The notes under the pieces were generated by a model. It ran no database searches. It saw nothing but the letters and a program-made list of their open reading frames with translations, and was not told the DNA's origin. This document shows, in pieces, positions 38,875-47,649 of a stretch of DNA of 64,000 nt. Numbering within the stretch: the stretch's first letter is position 1; every line of letters starts with the position of its first letter. The position numbers and the translations under genes were made by a program. This DNA comes from a virus, in IMG/VR virus record IMGVR_UViG_3300032116_000013, positions 1 through 64,000 of that record. The stretch is one strand, 5' to 3'.

Positions 38875-40026
38875 ATGAGTCTAGCAGCACTACAAAAGAA
38901 AATTGGAATTACAGCCGACGGTTCTTGGGGTCCAGGAACTTTCAAAGCAGCGATGGATTTTTACAAACTATCGCCTGTTCGCGCTGCACATTTCTTTGCT
39001 CAAACGGCTCATGAGACTGGCGGATTCAAAGCATTCGCTGAGAATCTGAATTATTCGGCAAAGGGTCTTCGTGGAATTTTTGGAAAATATTTTCCAACAG
39101 ATGCAATCGCAGCACAATATGAACGCAAACCAGAAAAAATTGCTAATCGAGTTTATGCATCGCGCATGGGCAACGGTCCTGAAGCGAGTGGCGATGGTTG
39201 GAGATATCGTGGTCGTGGTGCGCTTCAACTAACTGGCAAGGATAACTATAAAGCCTTCGCTGATTATTGCAAGCGTCCAGACGTCATGAGCAATCCAGAC
39301 ATCGTTGCAACTGAATTGGCTTTCGAGTCAGCAATGTTTTTCTTCGAGCGCAATAAACTTTGGGCAATCTGCGATCAAGGAGTAACCGATGCTGCGATTT
39401 TATCCCTTACTAAGAAAATTAATGGTGGCACACACGGCTTACAAGATCGCTCGGATAAGACGAAGAAATACATTGGCTGGGCAACATCAGCAACACCAGC
39501 GCCAGTAGCGAACGTCGTTGCAAGACCAGTCGCCGAGGCACTCACCGTAACGCCAGATATGCAGTTATCTACACATTTCAAATTGAATGAGTTTACGAAG
39601 TCCGAAACTGCAATTCGTAAGCGCATAGATAACACTCCTGGACCTGCCCATGCTGCAAATCTTAAAAAAGTCTGCGAAAAAATACTTGAACCTGTTCGCG
39701 CGCATTATAATAAGCCTGTCCGTATTAATAGTGGCTACCGTGGTGCTGCCCTTAATGCTGCTGTTGGTGGTTCTAGTAAGTCTCAACATTGTAATGGGGA
39801 GGCAGTGGACTTCGAAATCGACGGACTCCCAAATCCAGACCTTGCAAAGTGGGTCAGCGAAAATTGTGACTTTGATCAAATCATCCTAGAGTTCTATGAT
39901 CCGAAAGAAGGACCAAATAGCGGATGGGTGCATGCTTCCTATTCTGAAGGAAAGAATCGCAAACAAATTTTGACAGCAGTGACAGTCAACGGAAAAACAG
40001 TCTATAAACCTGGCTTCGTAGTGTGA
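38875..40026 (+). CDS. endolysin: PG-binding + GH19 + M15 peptidase
   Basis: ADGSWGPGT; AQTAHETGGF, YRGRGALQLTG; SGYR, SQH...AVD, WVHASY. Confidence 0.9.
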   Translation: MSLAALQKKIGITADGSWGPGTFKAAMDFYKLSPVRAAHFFAQTAHETGGFKAFAENLNYSAKGLRGIFGKYFPTDAIAAQYERKPEKIANRVYASRMGNGPEASGDGWRYRGRGALQLTGKDNYKAFADYCKRPDVMSNPDIVATELAFESAMFFFERNKLWAICDQGVTDAAILSLTKKINGGTHGLQDRSDKTKKYIGWATSATPAPVANVVARPVAEALTVTPDMQLSTHFKLNEFTKSETAIRKRIDNTPGPAHAANLKKVCEKILEPVRAHYNKPVRINSGYRGAALNAAVGGSSKSQHCNGEAVDFEIDGLPNPDLAKWVSENCDFDQIILEFYDPKEGPNSGWVHASYSEGKNRKQILTAVTVNGKTVYKPGFVV

Positions 40027-42093: not shown

Positions 42094-42118
42094 TCGGTAC
42101 AGTTTTAGCATGTATATT

Positions 42119-42147
42119 GAGGGGCGACGTAAAACCGTCGCTTCTTT
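42119..42147 (+). terminator. intrinsic terminator-like hairpin
   Basis: GAGGGGCGACG-TAAAAC-CGTCGCTTCTT then T; short U tract. Confidence 0.5.
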
Positions 42148-42165
42148 GACGTGCACCTTTCAATA

Positions 42166-42173
42166 CCTAAATA
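42166..42173 (+). promoter_or_regulatory. late promoter for exported-protein operon
   Basis: CCTAAATA 32 nt before ATG 42206. Confidence 0.6.
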
Positions 42174-42205
42174 TGAGAACTGTAATTATTTTTTAGGGTG
42201 TTACA

Positions 42206-42790
42206 ATGAAATTAGGGAAATTGATTTGCTTGATGGTGATTTTAGTTTCTTCGCTATCAATAGCACAGGCTCAGACGACCACTACGAATACGACTGATCC
42301 AGTGCCTATTGTGACGGAATCTACGACGACGAGTACGGTAACAACGAACTCTACGTCGGAAACGACGCTAAAATCACCGCCACCATCTGCAATTTCCCCT
42401 ACCATCAACACCTCTAACAGCGACTTATGTACATTTGGCGTTGCGGGTGCTGTCCAAACTCAAATTTTGGGTCTCTCAACAGGGACTCAAGTTCGGGATA
42501 TGAATTGCGAAATGTTGAAGAATGCCAAGACGCTATATGATATGGGAATGAAAGTCGCAGCAGTCTCCGTTATGTGTCAAGATAGAAGAGTGTTCGATGC
42601 AATGATGAATGCGGGCACTCCATGTCCATATGATGGAATGATTGGTAAAGATGCGAAGGCTGCATGGAATGATAATCCTCAAATGCAGCCTGGTGTAAAT
42701 CAGAAGAAGCGTGGAGGCATGTCGGATGAAACTAAAACATTATTGGGCACTGGCGGCGTCGCTAGTTTGCTCCTCTTACTCTTACTCTGA
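42206..42790 (+). CDS. exported protein: signal peptide, Thr-rich linker, 4-Cys domain, C-terminal anchor
   Basis: signal ...SIAQA; Cys in DLC, MNC, VMC, TPC; tail SLLLLLLL. Confidence 0.75.
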   Translation: MKLGKLICLMVILVSSLSIAQAQTTTTNTTDPVPIVTESTTTSTVTTNSTSETTLKSPPPSAISPTINTSNSDLCTFGVAGAVQTQILGLSTGTQVRDMNCEMLKNAKTLYDMGMKVAAVSVMCQDRRVFDAMMNAGTPCPYDGMIGKDAKAAWNDNPQMQPGVNQKKRGGMSDETKTLLGTGGVASLLLLLLL

Positions 42791-43604
42791 AGATCTAGTA
42801 TTCGGTCAGACGCAGAACGCAGCGTCTGCTGGATATAATTGGGTAATGAAGAATATTCTGCCTCAAGTGGCAGGATTGCAAATCAATGGCGTGGTGTATC
42901 GTTACACGGCTGAGAAGAAGCCTGAAGACGATATGCTCGTTCACATTTCAAATTTAAACGCGAAAGGCGATGGCTATATCTTTCGCAATACTGACAACTG
43001 GTCTAAATTGCCAGGAAACACGATTCAGAAGTCCGTTCCAGTTCCTATTGTTTTTGCCGATAACTGGGGCGATGGATCTATCGACGTTGAAGGAAACGGT
43101 AGAGTTCTAGACGCTTCTGTCATTTACACTTTTCAATATGATCCTTGCTTTGATCCGCAAAGCAGCCCAGCATGTCCTGGATACAAGAATCCAGAATATA
43201 ATGTTGAGACCACTGAAATTGACGATCCACTGAACGATGAATACATTCGTAAAGAGTTTGAGCGTAAAGCCTCTTTAGATGAAGAAGATGAAAAGGAAAA
43301 GCAACGCGCAAGAGCAGCGGCGAATGCCGAGCGAAGACAGAATCGTATGGAAGCAGCATTGAGTGCTGTGAATACTGCTTTACTTACCGCTGACGCCGCA
43401 GTCGCTGCACAAAACTTTTTTACTCTTGCTGAAATTCCAAGTAGTTATGAAATTACAATTCCAGGTGGAGAATATAAAGACGCAATTCGTCTAGTTGATG
43501 CAAAGTTGCCTGATAACACCAGAGCACTTCGTAACAACTTGGCGCAACAGTTACTTCATGAGCAAATGGTTGACCTTCAGTATGCTAATCTAGAAACCGA
43601 ATAG
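42726..43604 (+). CDS. exported protein, 2-Cys, acidic helical C-terminus
   Basis: signal MKLKHYWALAASLVCSSYSYS; DPCFDPQSSPACPGY. Confidence 0.75.
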   Translation: MKLKHYWALAASLVCSSYSYSEDLVFGQTQNAASAGYNWVMKNILPQVAGLQINGVVYRYTAEKKPEDDMLVHISNLNAKGDGYIFRNTDNWSKLPGNTIQKSVPVPIVFADNWGDGSIDVEGNGRVLDASVIYTFQYDPCFDPQSSPACPGYKNPEYNVETTEIDDPLNDEYIRKEFERKASLDEEDEKEKQRARAAANAERRQNRMEAALSAVNTALLTADAAVAAQNFFTLAEIPSSYEITIPGGEYKDAIRLVDAKLPDNTRALRNNLAQQLLHEQMVDLQYANLETE

Positions 43605-43614
43605 GAGTAATTTA

Positions 43615-44121
43615 ATGTTCAAGAAATCACTAGCAATAGGATTTGTAATTGCTTTGTCTATGGTTACAAGGGCTTCTGCTGTAGAAGTTCCTATTGTTGG
43701 TAATGTTGCTGCGAAGTGCGTGATCGTTTCAGACACCTCAGGTGTTTATGGAAACCCAACCCCAGATAAACTCAGCACAGCAGCGGCAGATGGTGGCGTG
43801 CAACCAGTTGTACGTTTTGATGTATTACAGGCTAATTTTTTCAAGGCTGTAATCTCAACACCAAGAACATTCTCATCCAGCCCAGCGTTATCAGACGTTG
43901 TAAACTGGACAGGAAGCGTTTCTACTGCTCGTGTTTCTGATCCATTGATGTCAGCCTATGATACAAACAAGGTTGTATTCGATAACGTGACTGAGTTTGA
44001 TCTAACCGTTGCAGGAACCACCTGGTTCAAGGCAAGTTCAACTGCTGAATACGGTTATGATAAGGCACTTCCATCTGGAACATATCGCGCTGTGATCAAC
44101 GCAGAGTGCATCGCTAAGTAA
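43615..44121 (+). CDS. exported fimbrial/pilin-like protein
   Basis: signal ...RASA; VEVPIVGNVAAKC N-terminus; PSGTYRAVINAEC C-terminus. Confidence 0.55.
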   Translation: MFKKSLAIGFVIALSMVTRASAVEVPIVGNVAAKCVIVSDTSGVYGNPTPDKLSTAAADGGVQPVVRFDVLQANFFKAVISTPRTFSSSPALSDVVNWTGSVSTARVSDPLMSAYDTNKVVFDNVTEFDLTVAGTTWFKASSTAEYGYDKALPSGTYRAVINAECIAK

Positions 44122-44125
44122 TTAT

Positions 44126-44500
44126 ATGAAATATTTGTTATTTTTATTGTTCGGGTTTATGGGTATGCAGGCAGAGGGACACCAGTTCACCCCTGCATAC
44201 CCTAAACTCGAAGTATCCTATATAGATGATATACTCGTTGCTAAAATGGAGTTGTTCAACAGTAGAAACGACGTGACGTTCTACGAATTATCCGTGTTTG
44301 ATGGAAATTGGAATCCGATGCCATTCGCAACTACAGACAAAATAATTGAAGTTGGATATTTACAACGCAAGAACATTGAAATTTACGTTCGTGCTAAAGA
44401 CAAAGATAAAATTGTTTATATTTGCTCCAAATCTAAACTCAGTCCCGTTGGGGATCAGATTACGGTAATATCTTCGAGAATATGTTCGAAGGTAAAATGA
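44126..44500 (+). CDS. exported Ig-like protein (chaperone-like)
   Basis: signal ...QAEG; FTP...ELFN...YELSVFD; 2 Cys. Confidence 0.55.
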   Translation: MKYLLFLLFGFMGMQAEGHQFTPAYPKLEVSYIDDILVAKMELFNSRNDVTFYELSVFDGNWNPMPFATTDKIIEVGYLQRKNIEIYVRAKDKDKIVYICSKSKLSPVGDQITVISSRICSKVK

Positions 44501-44506
44501 GGATGT

Positions 44507-44941
44507 TTGATGAAAAATGTGATTTTATTTCTCATCATGTTCGTTATTTGCAGCGTTGGATTTGCGCAAACAAGTTCATTAAATTTGGCAATCCCTAACG
44601 CTCCGCAAAACTTTCAGTCCGATCGAATTCGTGCTGGTGAACTTGAATGTGATGCTGCAATTGGTTCGGCGACCAACGTTGAATTCGGCGTTGTTGGAAT
44701 TATCAATAATGGAAGTCCATATGATAATCTATCAAACAATGTGATCGTGAATCCGAATATGTCGAGCCAGTTAGTAAAAGACGTCGGTGTGTACGCAAGA
44801 ATTACCATTCCCATCGGCGCACCAAAGCAGCGATTAAATTGTAATATTCTTTATGAGTTGGAATTAGAAAAGAAACGATTGGAAGTTTTCAAATTGAGAC
44901 AAGAAGTTGAAAGGCTAAAAAATCTAAAGTTTGAGAACTAA
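44507..44941 (+). CDS. exported protein with C-terminal coiled coil
   Basis: signal ...VGFA; 2 Cys; ELEKKRLEVFKLRQEVERLK. Confidence 0.7.
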   Translation: MMKNVILFLIMFVICSVGFAQTSSLNLAIPNAPQNFQSDRIRAGELECDAAIGSATNVEFGVVGIINNGSPYDNLSNNVIVNPNMSSQLVKDVGVYARITIPIGAPKQRLNCNILYELELEKKRLEVFKLRQEVERLKNLKFEN

Positions 44942-44942
44942 A

Positions 44943-45452
44943 ATGGCAAAAAACCTAGACGAAAAAGTAGATGAGTTAGAAGCCGCTGTTGATCCGAACA
45001 CGGTCATTAGTATTGGCGGTTACAGTTTCACTCCAGCCAAACTCACGATCGCCGCTGGTATCGTTTCATCTGTCTTGGGTGGTCTTTACGGCATTTTTGA
45101 GTTTTACAAAGACTACATGGACATGAAACAGCAGATTCAAGAATACGTCGCCCCAGACCTATCTGGCATTCAAGAACGCCTGACCGAACTCGAAACAAGA
45201 ATCGAGAATACCGAAACGCTAGTCGCCGAGACCAACGATTACGTCGGTGAAATCCGCACCGATCTAAAGAACGATATCCGAGATATTCAAGCGACCGTAG
45301 ACCTAGCAGACCGTCGAAACAGAGAACTCGAAAGAGAGGTTCTGACGTCAATTCGCTCCATCGACAAGGAAAACGACGCCAATCTGAAGGCGTTGGAAAA
45401 GAAGGTCGATGAGAAGATTCAGAAGGCTCTGGACAATCCTTTAGCCAATTGA
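44943..45452 (+). CDS. single-TM coiled-coil protein
   Basis: TM LTIAAGIVSSVLGGLYGIF then heptad-rich region. Confidence 0.7.
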   Translation: MAKNLDEKVDELEAAVDPNTVISIGGYSFTPAKLTIAAGIVSSVLGGLYGIFEFYKDYMDMKQQIQEYVAPDLSGIQERLTELETRIENTETLVAETNDYVGEIRTDLKNDIRDIQATVDLADRRNRELEREVLTSIRSIDKENDANLKALEKKVDEKIQKALDNPLAN

Positions 45453-45455
45453 AAA

Positions 45456-45463
45456 CCTAAATA
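45456..45463 (+). promoter_or_regulatory. late promoter for lysis/membrane genes
   Basis: CCTAAATA. Confidence 0.6.
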
Positions 45464-45522
45464 AAAGAAGATAATGTCTCTGTAATGGATAGTTGATTTA
45501 TTGGCTTTCCCAGGAGACAACT

Positions 45523-45747
45523 ATGAGTTTATTAGCAGGTCTACGATCAATGGTCGCTGACGGGTGTGACGGTTCCGTTTCATCCAAGCGTGTTATTACT
45601 GCATTGGCAACCTTTCTAGTTGCCCTAGCGTTTTTGTTAAATATGTTTTTTGGATTGACTGTAGATAAGAATATGTACGATTCTATGATGATGATTGTTA
45701 TTGCTGGTTTGGGTACTACTGTTGCAGAGAAATTTGCTAAAAAATAA
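45523..45747 (+). CDS. holin-like two-TM protein
   Basis: SSKRV then two TM helices, basic C-terminus; AGGAG SD. Confidence 0.6.
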   Translation: MSLLAGLRSMVADGCDGSVSSKRVITALATFLVALAFLLNMFFGLTVDKNMYDSMMMIVIAGLGTTVAEKFAKK

Positions 45748-45764: not shown

Positions 45765-46019
45765 ATGGGTACATTACTTGTTGTAGTATTGGTTGCTGTT
45801 GCTGCTTGGGTTGTCTGGAAACTATGGAAGAAGCCTGATCTCAATAACGATGGCGCATTCGATTCCAAGGACGTGGTTGCTGCTGTCAAGGAAGTCGCCG
45901 CTGAAGCCAAGGAAGAAGCCGTTGCCGTTGTCGCAAAGACAGAAGAAGCGGTAACTGAAGTGGTTGAAAAGGCTAAGAAGGCTCGTAAGCCACGCGCACC
46001 AAAGAAGAAAGCAGAGTAA
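45765..46019 (+). CDS. membrane-anchored protein with EF-hand-like motif and Lys/Ala tail
   Basis: N-terminal TM; DLNNDGAFDSKD; ARKPRAPKKK. Confidence 0.65.
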   Translation: MGTLLVVVLVAVAAWVVWKLWKKPDLNNDGAFDSKDVVAAVKEVAAEAKEEAVAVVAKTEEAVTEVVEKAKKARKPRAPKKKAE

Positions 46020-46438
46020 TGCGTTACTTTATTGCATCCACACTTCTAGCGTTCTCAAGTGTAGCAAACGCCAATCCTTACGATTGGAAAATCATCAAAG
46101 TAGCCGATGGCGATACAGTGGTGTTCGAAGCACCATTTATGCCAGCACCACTCAAACCGCAACTCAGTTTGCGCGTTCTTGGTGTTGACACTCCAGAAAA
46201 AGGTGCACGTGCTGGATGCCCATCGGAAGCCGCTGCCGCTGAAAAGGCAAGCGCATTTACCAAAAATCTTGTCGCTAATGCTAAAAAGATTCAAATTGAA
46301 TTGAAAGAGCATGACAAGTTTGGCGGTCGTGTGTTGGGTGACGTGATTATTGATGGTCAGAAACTTTCTGAACTATTGATTAAAAATGGTCACGCTCGTG
46401 CATACTTTGGCGAAAAGAAAGCCAGTTGGTGCGAATAA
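46019..46438 (+). CDS. secreted thermonuclease (SNase family)
   Basis: signal ...VANA; VADGDT, RVLGVDTPE, GRVLG, LIKNGHA. Confidence 0.9.
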   Translation: MRYFIASTLLAFSSVANANPYDWKIIKVADGDTVVFEAPFMPAPLKPQLSLRVLGVDTPEKGARAGCPSEAAAAEKASAFTKNLVANAKKIQIELKEHDKFGGRVLGDVIIDGQKLSELLIKNGHARAYFGEKKASWCE

Positions 46439-46608: not shown

Positions 46609-47160
46609 ATGTTGATTCCATTACCTTATAAGATCCTCGCAGTCGTTCTTATCGTTGGCGGCGCATTTGCCGCTGGATACAAAAAAGGCATTGCTCAAGG
46701 TGAAGTGGAAATTCAAAGAGCGGCAAACGAAGCAGAAGAACTTTCTATCGCTCTAAAGAAAGAGCAAGCAATGATTCGTGAAGTTGTCAAGGTCGAATAC
46801 GTCGACCGCATCACGAAGATAAAAGAAAAAGAAACGAAGATCATCGAAGCAGCAACCGACACCGTTCCTGGACAGTATGACTTGTCGAACGGTTGGGTTC
46901 ACACGCATAACGCAGCAGCATCACCATCGCTTGAACTTGATCTAAATCTTGCCGCTGATGCAAGCAGTTCATTTGTAAGAGACAACTCAGCACTTATAAC
47001 TGTAACGCAAAACTATGCAATTTGCTTACAAAACGCGCAGCAATTAACTTCACTTCAGAAGTATATCATCGAAGTAAATAATAAGATTGACGAAGAGAAC
47101 GAAAAGCGCGGAATAAATATTAAACTTCCTGATTTACCATGGAAGAAGAAGGAGGGATGA
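46609..47160 (+). CDS. i-spanin (Rz-like)
   Basis: N-terminal TM, coiled coil, GWVHTHNAAA. Confidence 0.75.
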   Translation: MLIPLPYKILAVVLIVGGAFAAGYKKGIAQGEVEIQRAANEAEELSIALKKEQAMIREVVKVEYVDRITKIKEKETKIIEAATDTVPGQYDLSNGWVHTHNAAASPSLELDLNLAADASSSFVRDNSALITVTQNYAICLQNAQQLTSLQKYIIEVNNKIDEENEKRGINIKLPDLPWKKKEG

Positions 47161-47336
47161 TGAAATACCTTCTAGTGATTTTACTTTCATTCAGCCTCGC
47201 TGGTTGTGCAAAACAACTCACGAGATTGATGCCAAAACTTGAAAAATTGGAACCGCCAGCAGAATTGATGGTTCCACCGAAAGATTTGAAAATTATAGAA
47301 AAACCTACGGAGAAACCAAATGGCGACAACTTATAA
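47157..47336 (+). CDS. o-spanin lipoprotein (Rz1-like)
   Basis: lipobox LAGC; Pro-rich PPAELMVPP; follows i-spanin. Confidence 0.75.
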   Translation: MMKYLLVILLSFSLAGCAKQLTRLMPKLEKLEPPAELMVPPKDLKIIEKPTEKPNGDNL

Positions 47337-47649
47337 ATGGGATTTTTATGCATTTGATGTTGCACCTTCAGAAAATGGATATACTGATTTGATTAAATCT
47401 ATAAGTTGGAAGATGATAGCCAATAACGGAACTCATCAGTGCGAAATGCATTCTAAGTTGCCACTAGAATACCCTAATCCTGAAAATTTTATTGCATTTG
47501 AAAATTTAACTGAAGAACAAGTTATTTCTTGGGCAGAAAGTAAAGTTAATGTTGCAGATTTTAAATCTTCTTTGGATTATAGTTTAGAATTGCTCACTAA
47601 TCCTCCGATAGTAACAAAACAAGCACCATGGAATTCTACTTCACCATAA
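47320..47649 (+). CDS. phage hypothetical protein (tail-associated family)
   Basis: YKW...W...FIAFENLTEEQVISW motif. Confidence 0.65.
   Translation: MATTYKWDFYAFDVAPSENGYTDLIKSISWKMIANNGTHQCEMHSKLPLEYPNPENFIAFENLTEEQVISWAESKVNVADFKSSLDYSLELLTNPPIVTKQAPWNSTSP

Follow-up and report, generated by a model that had tools for sequence, protein, structure and literature searches.

A predicted Sec-exported envelope module of a marine T4-like phage, composed of two separable sub-modules

The first 64,000 nucleotides (hereafter the window) of the virus record IMGVR_UViG_3300032116_000013 contain a tight block of six genes, A to F (42206-45452). The record is a 197,424-bp T4-like phage genome, rated 100% complete by CheckV. 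On our best reading, the A-F block of this marine T4-like phage is an envelope module exported by the general secretion (Sec) route and produced late in infection. The main new point is that, as judged from the sequences of its carriers, the cassette is made of two separable sub-modules, A-B-F and C-D-E. An earlier note on the window had proposed a phage-built cell-surface structure. This now appears less likely, since no outer-membrane route is encoded, D has a single domain, and the cassette, a fusion of separable sub-modules, often lies among lysis genes. The only relatives of the window among cultured phages at the DNA level are cyanophage and Pelagibacter myoviruses, with the match confined to the structural gene upstream of gene A. 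Full-text literature searches found no published description of the cassette.

IMG/VR was searched with C and B, which returned 44 loci, and then with A, which returned 80. All 44 loci of the first set keep the order A-B-C-D-E-F as far as the contigs reach, and the flanks mostly differ. Among the A-search loci with enough downstream DNA, 55 of 58 carry A-F and the other three carry A-B-F only. Gene order had been suggested as a check on the block, and by this check A-F is conserved as a unit. Several carrier loci have a terminase and neighbouring genes unlike those of this phage, which indicates that the module moves between phage backgrounds; cassette genes occur in podo-, sipho- and myovirus-type contigs. 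The A domain itself was found in Pelagibacter podophages, the Pelagibacter myophage Mosig, Roseobacter phages, and the Ralstonia phage RSP15.

Each sub-module also occurs without the other. A-B-F without C-D-E is found in HTVC115P, HTVC202P, Mosig, and CRP-810, and in three contigs with true B and F homologues. In HTVC115P, gp54 is A (hidden Markov model (HMM) E 1e-51), gp49 is F (6.4e-36), and gp53, a protein of 466 amino acids (aa) which overlaps the A tail and ends in ..H.ELVDMQYR, is a B-like counterpart. The trio was recognised by its architecture in HTVC202P, Mosig, and CRP-810. In the contigs L131 and L140, a genuine A, a B as long as 550-559 aa, and F adjoin one another directly. The converse arrangement, C-D-E with no A-B-F nearby, is present in the Vibrio crassostreae siphophage 51E28.1 as the consecutive genes p0041-p0043, with HMM E values of 2.9e-11 for the C-like, 7e-3 for the D-like, and 1.7e-11 for the E-like protein. 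The D-like protein belongs to phrog_25455, a PHROG that the window D also matches weakly. A third arrangement was seen in the divergent contig L045, where the order A-B-(51 aa)-F-C-D-E places the two blocks next to each other and not nested. This contig was reached through P0204, one of four distant C relatives whose contexts were inspected; the other three are on very short contigs.

Some database entries for these carriers deserve comment. Two names in CRP-810 (L047, OR671924.1) look wrong: the gp51 'lysozyme' is an F homologue with a transmembrane segment and a coiled coil, ending in NKNPLGR, and the gp53 'OmpA family protein' shows no match to OmpA and is homologous to A. The E-like gene of 51E28.1 (L055:4941-5330) has a leaderless annotated start, and an upstream in-frame ATG would add a lipobox-like leader (..VLAAC). 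If this upstream start is real, E in 51E28.1 would be an outer-membrane lipoprotein. Close relatives of E in the genome collection are all on short contigs in metagenome-assembled genomes (MAGs) of unrelated taxa. One Rhodobacteraceae MAG (G001, Water_Bin34) has five different C copies on five contigs of one bin, and the C carriers (loci L062-L064, L067, and L147-L151) include MAGs labelled Melainabacteria, Bathyarchaeia, Aquiluna, and others. From the short contigs, the unrelated taxa, and the several copies per bin, we read these as binned phage DNA, not as cellular copies. C was not found in a sample of 400 other Alphaproteobacteria. Length correlations among the six proteins were rejected as evidence because they were uncorrected for relatedness.

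The operon described in the earlier note is present: the six open reading frames (ORFs) are all co-directional, the spaces between them measure 1-10 nt, and gene B, read in another frame, overlaps gene A by 65 nt. A terminator-like hairpin (42119..42146, plus strand) follows the upstream virion structural gene. It has an 11-bp G+C-rich stem followed by the T-rich TTCTTTGA, and the RNA fold of 42110-42160 is -19.5 kcal/mol. The late-promoter-like motif CTAAATA, a putative promoter, lies 39 nt 5' of the gene A start (42167..42173, plus strand), and a second CTAAATA (45457..45463, plus strand) lies just 3' of F and 36 nt 5' of a holin-like gene (45493-45747). This motif is strand-biased genome-wide, with 26 plus-strand and 2 minus-strand copies, and 14 of the 30 distinct loci of orthologues have [ACT]TAAATA at a distance of 34-51 nt 5' of gene A. 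The T4 late consensus TATAAATA showed no enrichment in the window. The operon had been described as bracketed by two late promoters; two CTAAATA motifs do flank it, but the motif differs from that of T4. With the hairpin terminator and the CTAAATA motifs, a single late transcription unit is a fair reading for A-F. The most likely starts of three of the genes are ATG 42726 for B, behind GGAGG, rather than GTG 42711, ATG 44510 for E, and ATG 44943 for F.

A to E are very probably exported via Sec-type leaders. A simple rule for leaders, which asks for a basic n-region, a hydrophobic core, and small residues at positions -3 and -1, was passed by 22/22 orthologues of A, 21/22 of B, 24/24 of C, 27/30 of D, and 23/23 of E. 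The leader sequences are variable among the orthologues and the mature parts are conserved. By a stricter rule, only 14 of the 247 ORFs of the genome look exported, and eight of these 14 lie at 38.2-47.4 kb. The mature proteins A to F have 4, 2, 2, 2, 2, and 0 cysteines, and the cysteines of A to E are invariant or nearly so in 22-30 orthologues each. The earlier note had described five consecutive genes with Sec leaders, even numbers of mature cysteines, a membrane-anchored coiled coil as the sixth product, and a Thr-rich linker with a C-terminal hydrophobic tail in the first. All of these were borne out, the leaders by the rule across orthologues, the cysteines by their invariant or near-invariant positions in the alignments, and the sixth product by the transmembrane and coiled-coil layout of F.

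The six proteins resemble no informative family. Pfam, NCBIfam, and PHROGs gave only unnamed PHROGs and coiled-coil noise for A-F, profile searches of PDB sequences with the A, B, C, D, and E alignments gave nothing below E 0.1, the ESM Atlas had no usable match for A or B, and cultured phages yielded nothing by tblastn with B, C, and D.

Gene A (194 aa; 42206..42790, plus strand) encodes a leader, a Thr/Ser-rich linker, an SPPPSAI motif, a four-Cys domain, and a tail of GG and poly-Leu. The SPPPSAI motif and the four Cys are invariant, and the four-Cys domain includes a Gly/Ala-rich hydrophobic stretch. The leader is ordinary (..SIAQA followed by QT), and a lipobox-like leader is present in 1 of 22 A orthologues. 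The C-terminus reads ..G.GGVASLLLLLLL (G.GG, poly-Leu tail) and has no basic residues after the helix in 22/22 orthologues. Unlike the GlyGly-CTERM/rhombosortase signal, therefore, A has no basic cluster after the helix, and it matched no NCBIfam sorting signal. The membrane tail is like that of the unimolecular spanin T1 gp11, but A lacks the N-terminal lipoprotein signal. A is the best conserved member of the module, with a mean column identity of 63%; between loci its identity is 60-80%, compared with 26-45% for the other members (26-33% for F). The A family comprises at least 8000 metagenomic clusters at 90% identity, Tara Oceans included, all hypothetical or unnamed and with no Pfam domain. 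A matches phrog_20531 at 1.5e-13, and its longer forms (350-390 aa) have no informative domains. Three odd A rows, which carry enzyme or transporter families that are unrelated, were set aside as likely chimeras of gene calling or assembly.

Gene B (292 aa; 42726..43604, plus strand) encodes a leader that lies within the A tail, a beta-rich N-domain, a Cys loop, an acidic linker, and an H..MVD.QY end. The length of the acidic linker is highly variable in the orthologue alignment, and the C-terminal H..MVD.QY motif is conserved. B had no match in Pfam, NCBIfam, or PDB sequences. The 65 nt at 42726-42790 are dual coding, specifying the A poly-Leu tail and the B signal peptide in two frames. An A/B overlap of 65-71 nt is present in 34 of 40 loci, and it is probably because of the overlap with the A tail that the B leader is the most conserved of the five.

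Gene F (169 aa; 44943..45452, plus strand) has no leader and contains one transmembrane segment (residues ~27-50), a periplasmic coiled coil, and the C-terminal motif LDNPLA[DN]. Basic residues ahead of the transmembrane segment place the N-terminus inside. The coiled-coil length varies by insertions, and the LDNPLA[DN] end is invariant among orthologues. F is like the i-spanins of two-component systems (lambda Rz/Rz1, T4 PseT.3/PseT.2) in topology, with an N-terminal transmembrane segment, a coiled coil of 110-170 residues, and a conserved C-terminus; this is a likeness of layout and not homology. The match to an Rz-like spanin PHROG is weak (1.7e-4) and covers the coiled coil only. Like those spanins, the module often lies among lysis genes. 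Unlike them, no lipobox is present in the window A-E, and this phage and the L010-type loci carry a separate spanin pair besides the module. The module thus fails the spanin tests for want of a lipoprotein partner, and its co-occurrence with canonical spanins indicates that it is not simply a spanin substitute.

Gene C (168 aa; 43615..44121, plus strand) encodes a leader, an N-terminal extension of 9-12 residues (x-E-x-P-I-x-G-x-V), and a beta-sandwich with a Cys35-Cys165 pair. In the AlphaFold2 model (35 sequences), which has a predicted local distance difference test score (pLDDT) of 91.5, C is predicted to be a beta-sandwich of roughly ten strands. The core runs from a first strand starting at Cys35 to a last strand that contains Cys165. 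Outside this core lies the conserved N-terminal extension, in which hydrophobic residues alternate and one Gly is invariant. At 50% identity the small C family has 112 representatives, of which many are fragmentary. A full profile search of 1.8 billion representatives retrieved only this family and no bridge to pilins or to a larger family. By Foldseek, the matches of C to chaperone-usher pilins are weak (E 1e-3 to 1e-2, TM-score about 0.3-0.45), and the weak list comprises CfaB, the PapG pilin domain, CsuA/B, FimG, and CanA. By VIA-align, the best matches were MSCRAMM N3 domains, integrin calf domains, carbohydrate-binding modules, and generic Ig-like (immunoglobulin-like) folds, all at a Z of 7.6 or below; chaperone-usher pilins were absent from the top 50. 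Among donor-strand polymers (Pyrodictium CanA, archaeal bundling pili, TasA), C covers most of CanA and shares a free conserved N-terminal strand, with a TM-score of 0.51/0.56 by Foldseek and a Z of 5.7-6.4 by VIA-align (6.4 over 114 residues, monomer). Unlike a member of that class, C scores within the chance range for beta-sandwiches and has no sequence similarity to it. C is best described as a generic beta-sandwich that is possibly pilin-like. Of the pilin-like subunit seen in the earlier note, the secreted beta-sandwich and the conserved N-terminal extension stand; the pilin identity does not go beyond the weak Foldseek matches.

Gene D (124 aa; 44126..44500, plus strand) encodes a leader, an invariant His as the first mature residue, and a single PapD-like/MSP-type Ig domain with a Cys100-Cys120 pair; the mature length is ~105 aa. 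The model (30 sequences, pLDDT 89.1) shows seven strands in an Ig domain of the PapD-like/MSP type. The best Foldseek match was DraB (E 2e-4), followed by FaeE, FimC, Caf1M, PapD, SafB, CsuC, and MSP domains, with E up to 3e-3 and TM-scores of ~0.6. The VIA-align Z values were 11.0 for SafB (105 residues, 3.0 Å), 10.6 for FimC, 9.9 for CfaA, and 9.6 for PapD, compared with a usual background of 7-8. D aligns to chaperone domain 1 only (residues ~1-125 of SafB, FimC, and PapD). It has no PF00345 (PapD_N) sequence match, and no longer relatives of D turned up, which is weak evidence. Its proposed role as a small Ig-fold chaperone is therefore retained in part: the Ig-type fold of chaperone domain 1 is there, but as a single domain and not as the two-domain protein. 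Pilus chaperones anchor the C-terminus of their subunit by a conserved Arg/Lys pair; D has a near-invariant Lys behind the last strand (..ICSK.K), and its first strand has no invariant Arg. Stand-alone seven-strand Ig domains of the MSP/PapD-like superfamily (VAP MSP, CEP192 ASH) resemble D no less than the chaperones do, at Z 9.4-9.8. Those members are domains used for peptide or strand binding; they are cytoplasmic and eukaryotic, whereas D is exported, disulfide-bonded, and phage-encoded. Mature D begins at the His of AHEFTPTYP, and this His19 (44180-44182) is invariant in 30/30 aligned D sequences; there is no second invariant His, and the Vibrio-phage D-like protein begins with LTLSP instead of His. 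In other protein families, a His at the N-terminus can serve as a copper ligand.

Gene E (143 aa; 44510..44941, plus strand) encodes a leader, a conserved SSLNL..P start, two amphipathic beta stretches, a Cys47-Cys111 pair (counted from ATG 44510), a coiled coil, and an FEN end. A lipobox-like leader is present in 3 of 23 orthologues, and E is not generally a lipoprotein.

The C-D pair invites comparison with chaperone-usher systems (SafB-SafA, Caf1M-Caf1, FimC-FimA, PapD-PapK, CsuC-CsuA/B). As in those systems, D has the domain-1 Ig fold, its gene adjoins that of a secreted beta-sandwich protein, both products have leaders and disulfides, and in C the N-terminal extension is conserved and the last strand reads GxY..V..C. 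Unlike those systems, D has one domain instead of two and no PapD_N match, the phage has no usher, and C is not clearly of the pilin fold. C-D also travels with E and mostly with A-B-F, which have no counterpart there. No match to the usher family PF00577 was found at E<=1 across the whole 197,424-bp genome, in a search where the E. coli control was found, and the genome has no usher-sized gene, in agreement with what had been noted for the window. With no usher and a single-domain chaperone-like protein, the module fails the defining tests of a chaperone-usher system.

The module lies inside a lysis region in this phage. Upstream is an endolysin-type protein (38875-40026) with GH19 and peptidase M15_3 domains (Pfam 6.1e-8 and 2.9e-19; PHROG endolysin 2.5e-63), and two virion-type genes stand between it and the cassette. 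Directly after F comes the holin-like protein with two transmembrane segments (45493-45747), followed by an SNase-type gene with its own signal peptide (46019-46438; Pfam SNase 1.9e-12) and by an overlapping i-spanin/o-spanin (Rz/Rz1-like) pair (46609-47160 and 47157-47336), the second of which has the lipobox LAGC and an Rz1-like PHROG best match of 4.2e-5. In the L010-type loci a comparable set lies 3' of F: a protein with several transmembrane segments, overlapping i- and o-spanins that include a lipobox, an SNase that is exported, and an endolysin of the GH19 type. The gene immediately upstream of A in Mosig is a PF11351 holin. Adjacency to lysis genes is often seen but is not universal: across the flanks of 124 loci, an endolysin was recognised in only 14 and spanins in 12.

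Several smaller genes recur in this neighbourhood. Homologues of the nuclease are found beside the cassette with a signal in L010 and L011 and leaderless in L045. Near the cassette in 43 of 124 loci is a small protein (L010:7781-8095) that has 2-3 transmembrane segments and, at its N-terminus, an EF-hand-like loop (DxNxDG). In the window, an 84-aa gene (45765-46019) has a similar EF-hand-like loop behind a transmembrane segment and could be of a holin type. The window also contains a DUF7936 protein (47320-47649; Pfam 2.5e-17), relatives of which sit a short way 5' of the cassette in L009-L011, L014, L022, and L045; in L003, a DUF7936-like ORF is located 3' of it.

We tentatively favour, at somewhat short of an even chance, a periplasmic assembly anchored in the inner membrane, with an accessory role in which it acts on the envelope at the exit step. 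From their topology, A is anchored in the inner membrane by its C-terminal hydrophobic tail and F by its N-terminal transmembrane segment, with the coiled coil of F projecting into the periplasm. B is read as a soluble beta domain, tethered through an acidic linker whose length varies. D probably holds C by strand pairing, as pilus chaperones hold their subunits. E is a small beta and coiled-coil protein, and the C-D-E set would work on or with an A-B-F scaffold; we infer that the two sets could form a complex. The module would then act in the final minutes of infection, and the outer envelope layers might be loosened, detached, or timed to open beside the work of the holin, endolysin, and spanin. 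Because no outer-membrane pore is encoded, the assembly most likely stays periplasmic and a structure on the cell surface is less likely. The separable sub-modules and the frequent lysis-gene setting point to a site of action within the envelope. Its part in exit, which we likewise infer, is suggested by the late motif, the recurrent lysis neighbours, and the spanin-like layout of F.

Several observations weigh against this picture. This phage already has a full set of holin, endolysin, and spanin genes, so nothing obvious is missing for lysis. With the queries used, most cassette loci had no recognisable lysis neighbour, and the sub-modules of HTVC115P, HTVC202P, and 51E28.1 are ~8-27 kb away from a recognisable endolysin. 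A neighbourhood of phage late genes is in itself weak evidence. The B counterparts of the pelagiphages are joined to B by architecture and a 10-bit terminal motif only, which makes this an architecture-level link.

Superinfection exclusion, or the masking of receptors or debris, is a distinctly less probable alternative. The exported proteins would occupy or alter an envelope component, thereby blocking injection by other phages or sparing the progeny from loss to lysed-cell debris. Every part of the module is envelope-located, and the far stronger conservation of A (60-80% against 26-45%) would be expected if A bound a conserved host part. In this phage and in the Vibrio phage 51E28.1, the module genes come after genes of virion or tail type, and the receptor-blocking genes cor and llp hold such a position after the tail genes in coliphages. 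The pelagiphage B counterparts also have a weak, sub-threshold carbohydrate-binding-like N-terminus (CBM_4_9, E 0.02). However, the motif upstream of A is of a late type, whereas known exclusion genes are mostly early or expressed from prophages. Six proteins are many for masking, and the widely varying flanks show no steady link to a receptor-binding gene.

The topology of F can be read in another way, as that of T4 holin T, with a short cytoplasmic N-terminus, one transmembrane segment, and a large periplasmic part. The module might then be a sensor for lysis timing, a periplasmic antiholin-like device (cf. T4 RI/holin T) which couples periplasmic signals to F or to the neighbouring holin-like proteins. 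Holin-like genes do adjoin the module in this phage, Mosig, and L131/L140, and the motif suggests late expression. We consider this improbable, however, as neither sequence nor fold links the module to RI, RIII, or holin T, the need for a pair of chaperone-like and subunit-like proteins is not explained, and there is no sign that the carrier phages show lysis inhibition.

A surface fibre or pilus, the reading closest to that of the earlier note, is unlikely. C would polymerise by donor-strand exchange with D as its chaperone, and the fibre would leave either via an usher or secretin supplied by the host or via oligomerised E, whose two amphipathic beta stretches could in principle oligomerise. 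The chaperone domain-1 fold of D, the N-terminal extension of C outside its folded core, and the presence of chaperone-usher pilins and CanA among the weak Foldseek matches of C all speak for such a fibre. Against it, the complete genome has no usher, and D has no domain 2, which in chaperone-usher systems contacts the usher. The N- and C-terminal strands of C are disulfide-linked neighbours and its model looks like a complete sandwich, and in the structural comparisons pilins were indistinct from generic Ig-like folds (best Z 7.6, with no pilin in the VIA-align top 50). A fibre built minutes before lysis would also have no obvious use.

It is very improbable that the six belong to the virion or its assembly and that their hydrophobic N-termini serve some end other than export: the block directly follows two virion structural-type genes (phrog_1645, 6.5e-119) and has a late-type motif upstream, but, as had already been argued from the leaders, five consecutive leaders with conserved cleavage-type sites, even and invariant Cys, the membrane tail of A, and the transmembrane segment of F speak against it, T4-type virions assemble in the cytoplasm, and the genes are common to podo-, sipho- and myovirus-type contigs.

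Returning to the periplasmic assembly at the exit step, we see in it a further, rather doubtful idea, a chaperone-subunit principle independent of an usher. Here the half-chaperone D would hand C to a periplasm-spanning scaffold of A-B-F, with E, and what they build would act within the envelope as infection ends. If this reading is true, the docking of C and D without an usher would widen the uses of the chaperone-subunit assembly principle, and the A-B-F core would be a new class of device for breaching or controlling the envelope in phages of SAR11 and Roseobacter. Few lysis genes are known from these phages. With at least 8000 unnamed A clusters, the module is among the commoner gene sets of marine phages that have no known function. 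Parts of it are present in cultured Pelagibacter, Roseobacter, and Vibrio phages and can thus be tested at the bench, and the split into A-B-F and C-D-E provides two smaller and simpler experimental targets. A role at the exit step, if true, would bear on the lysis of the most abundant marine bacteria and hence on the release of carbon in the ocean.

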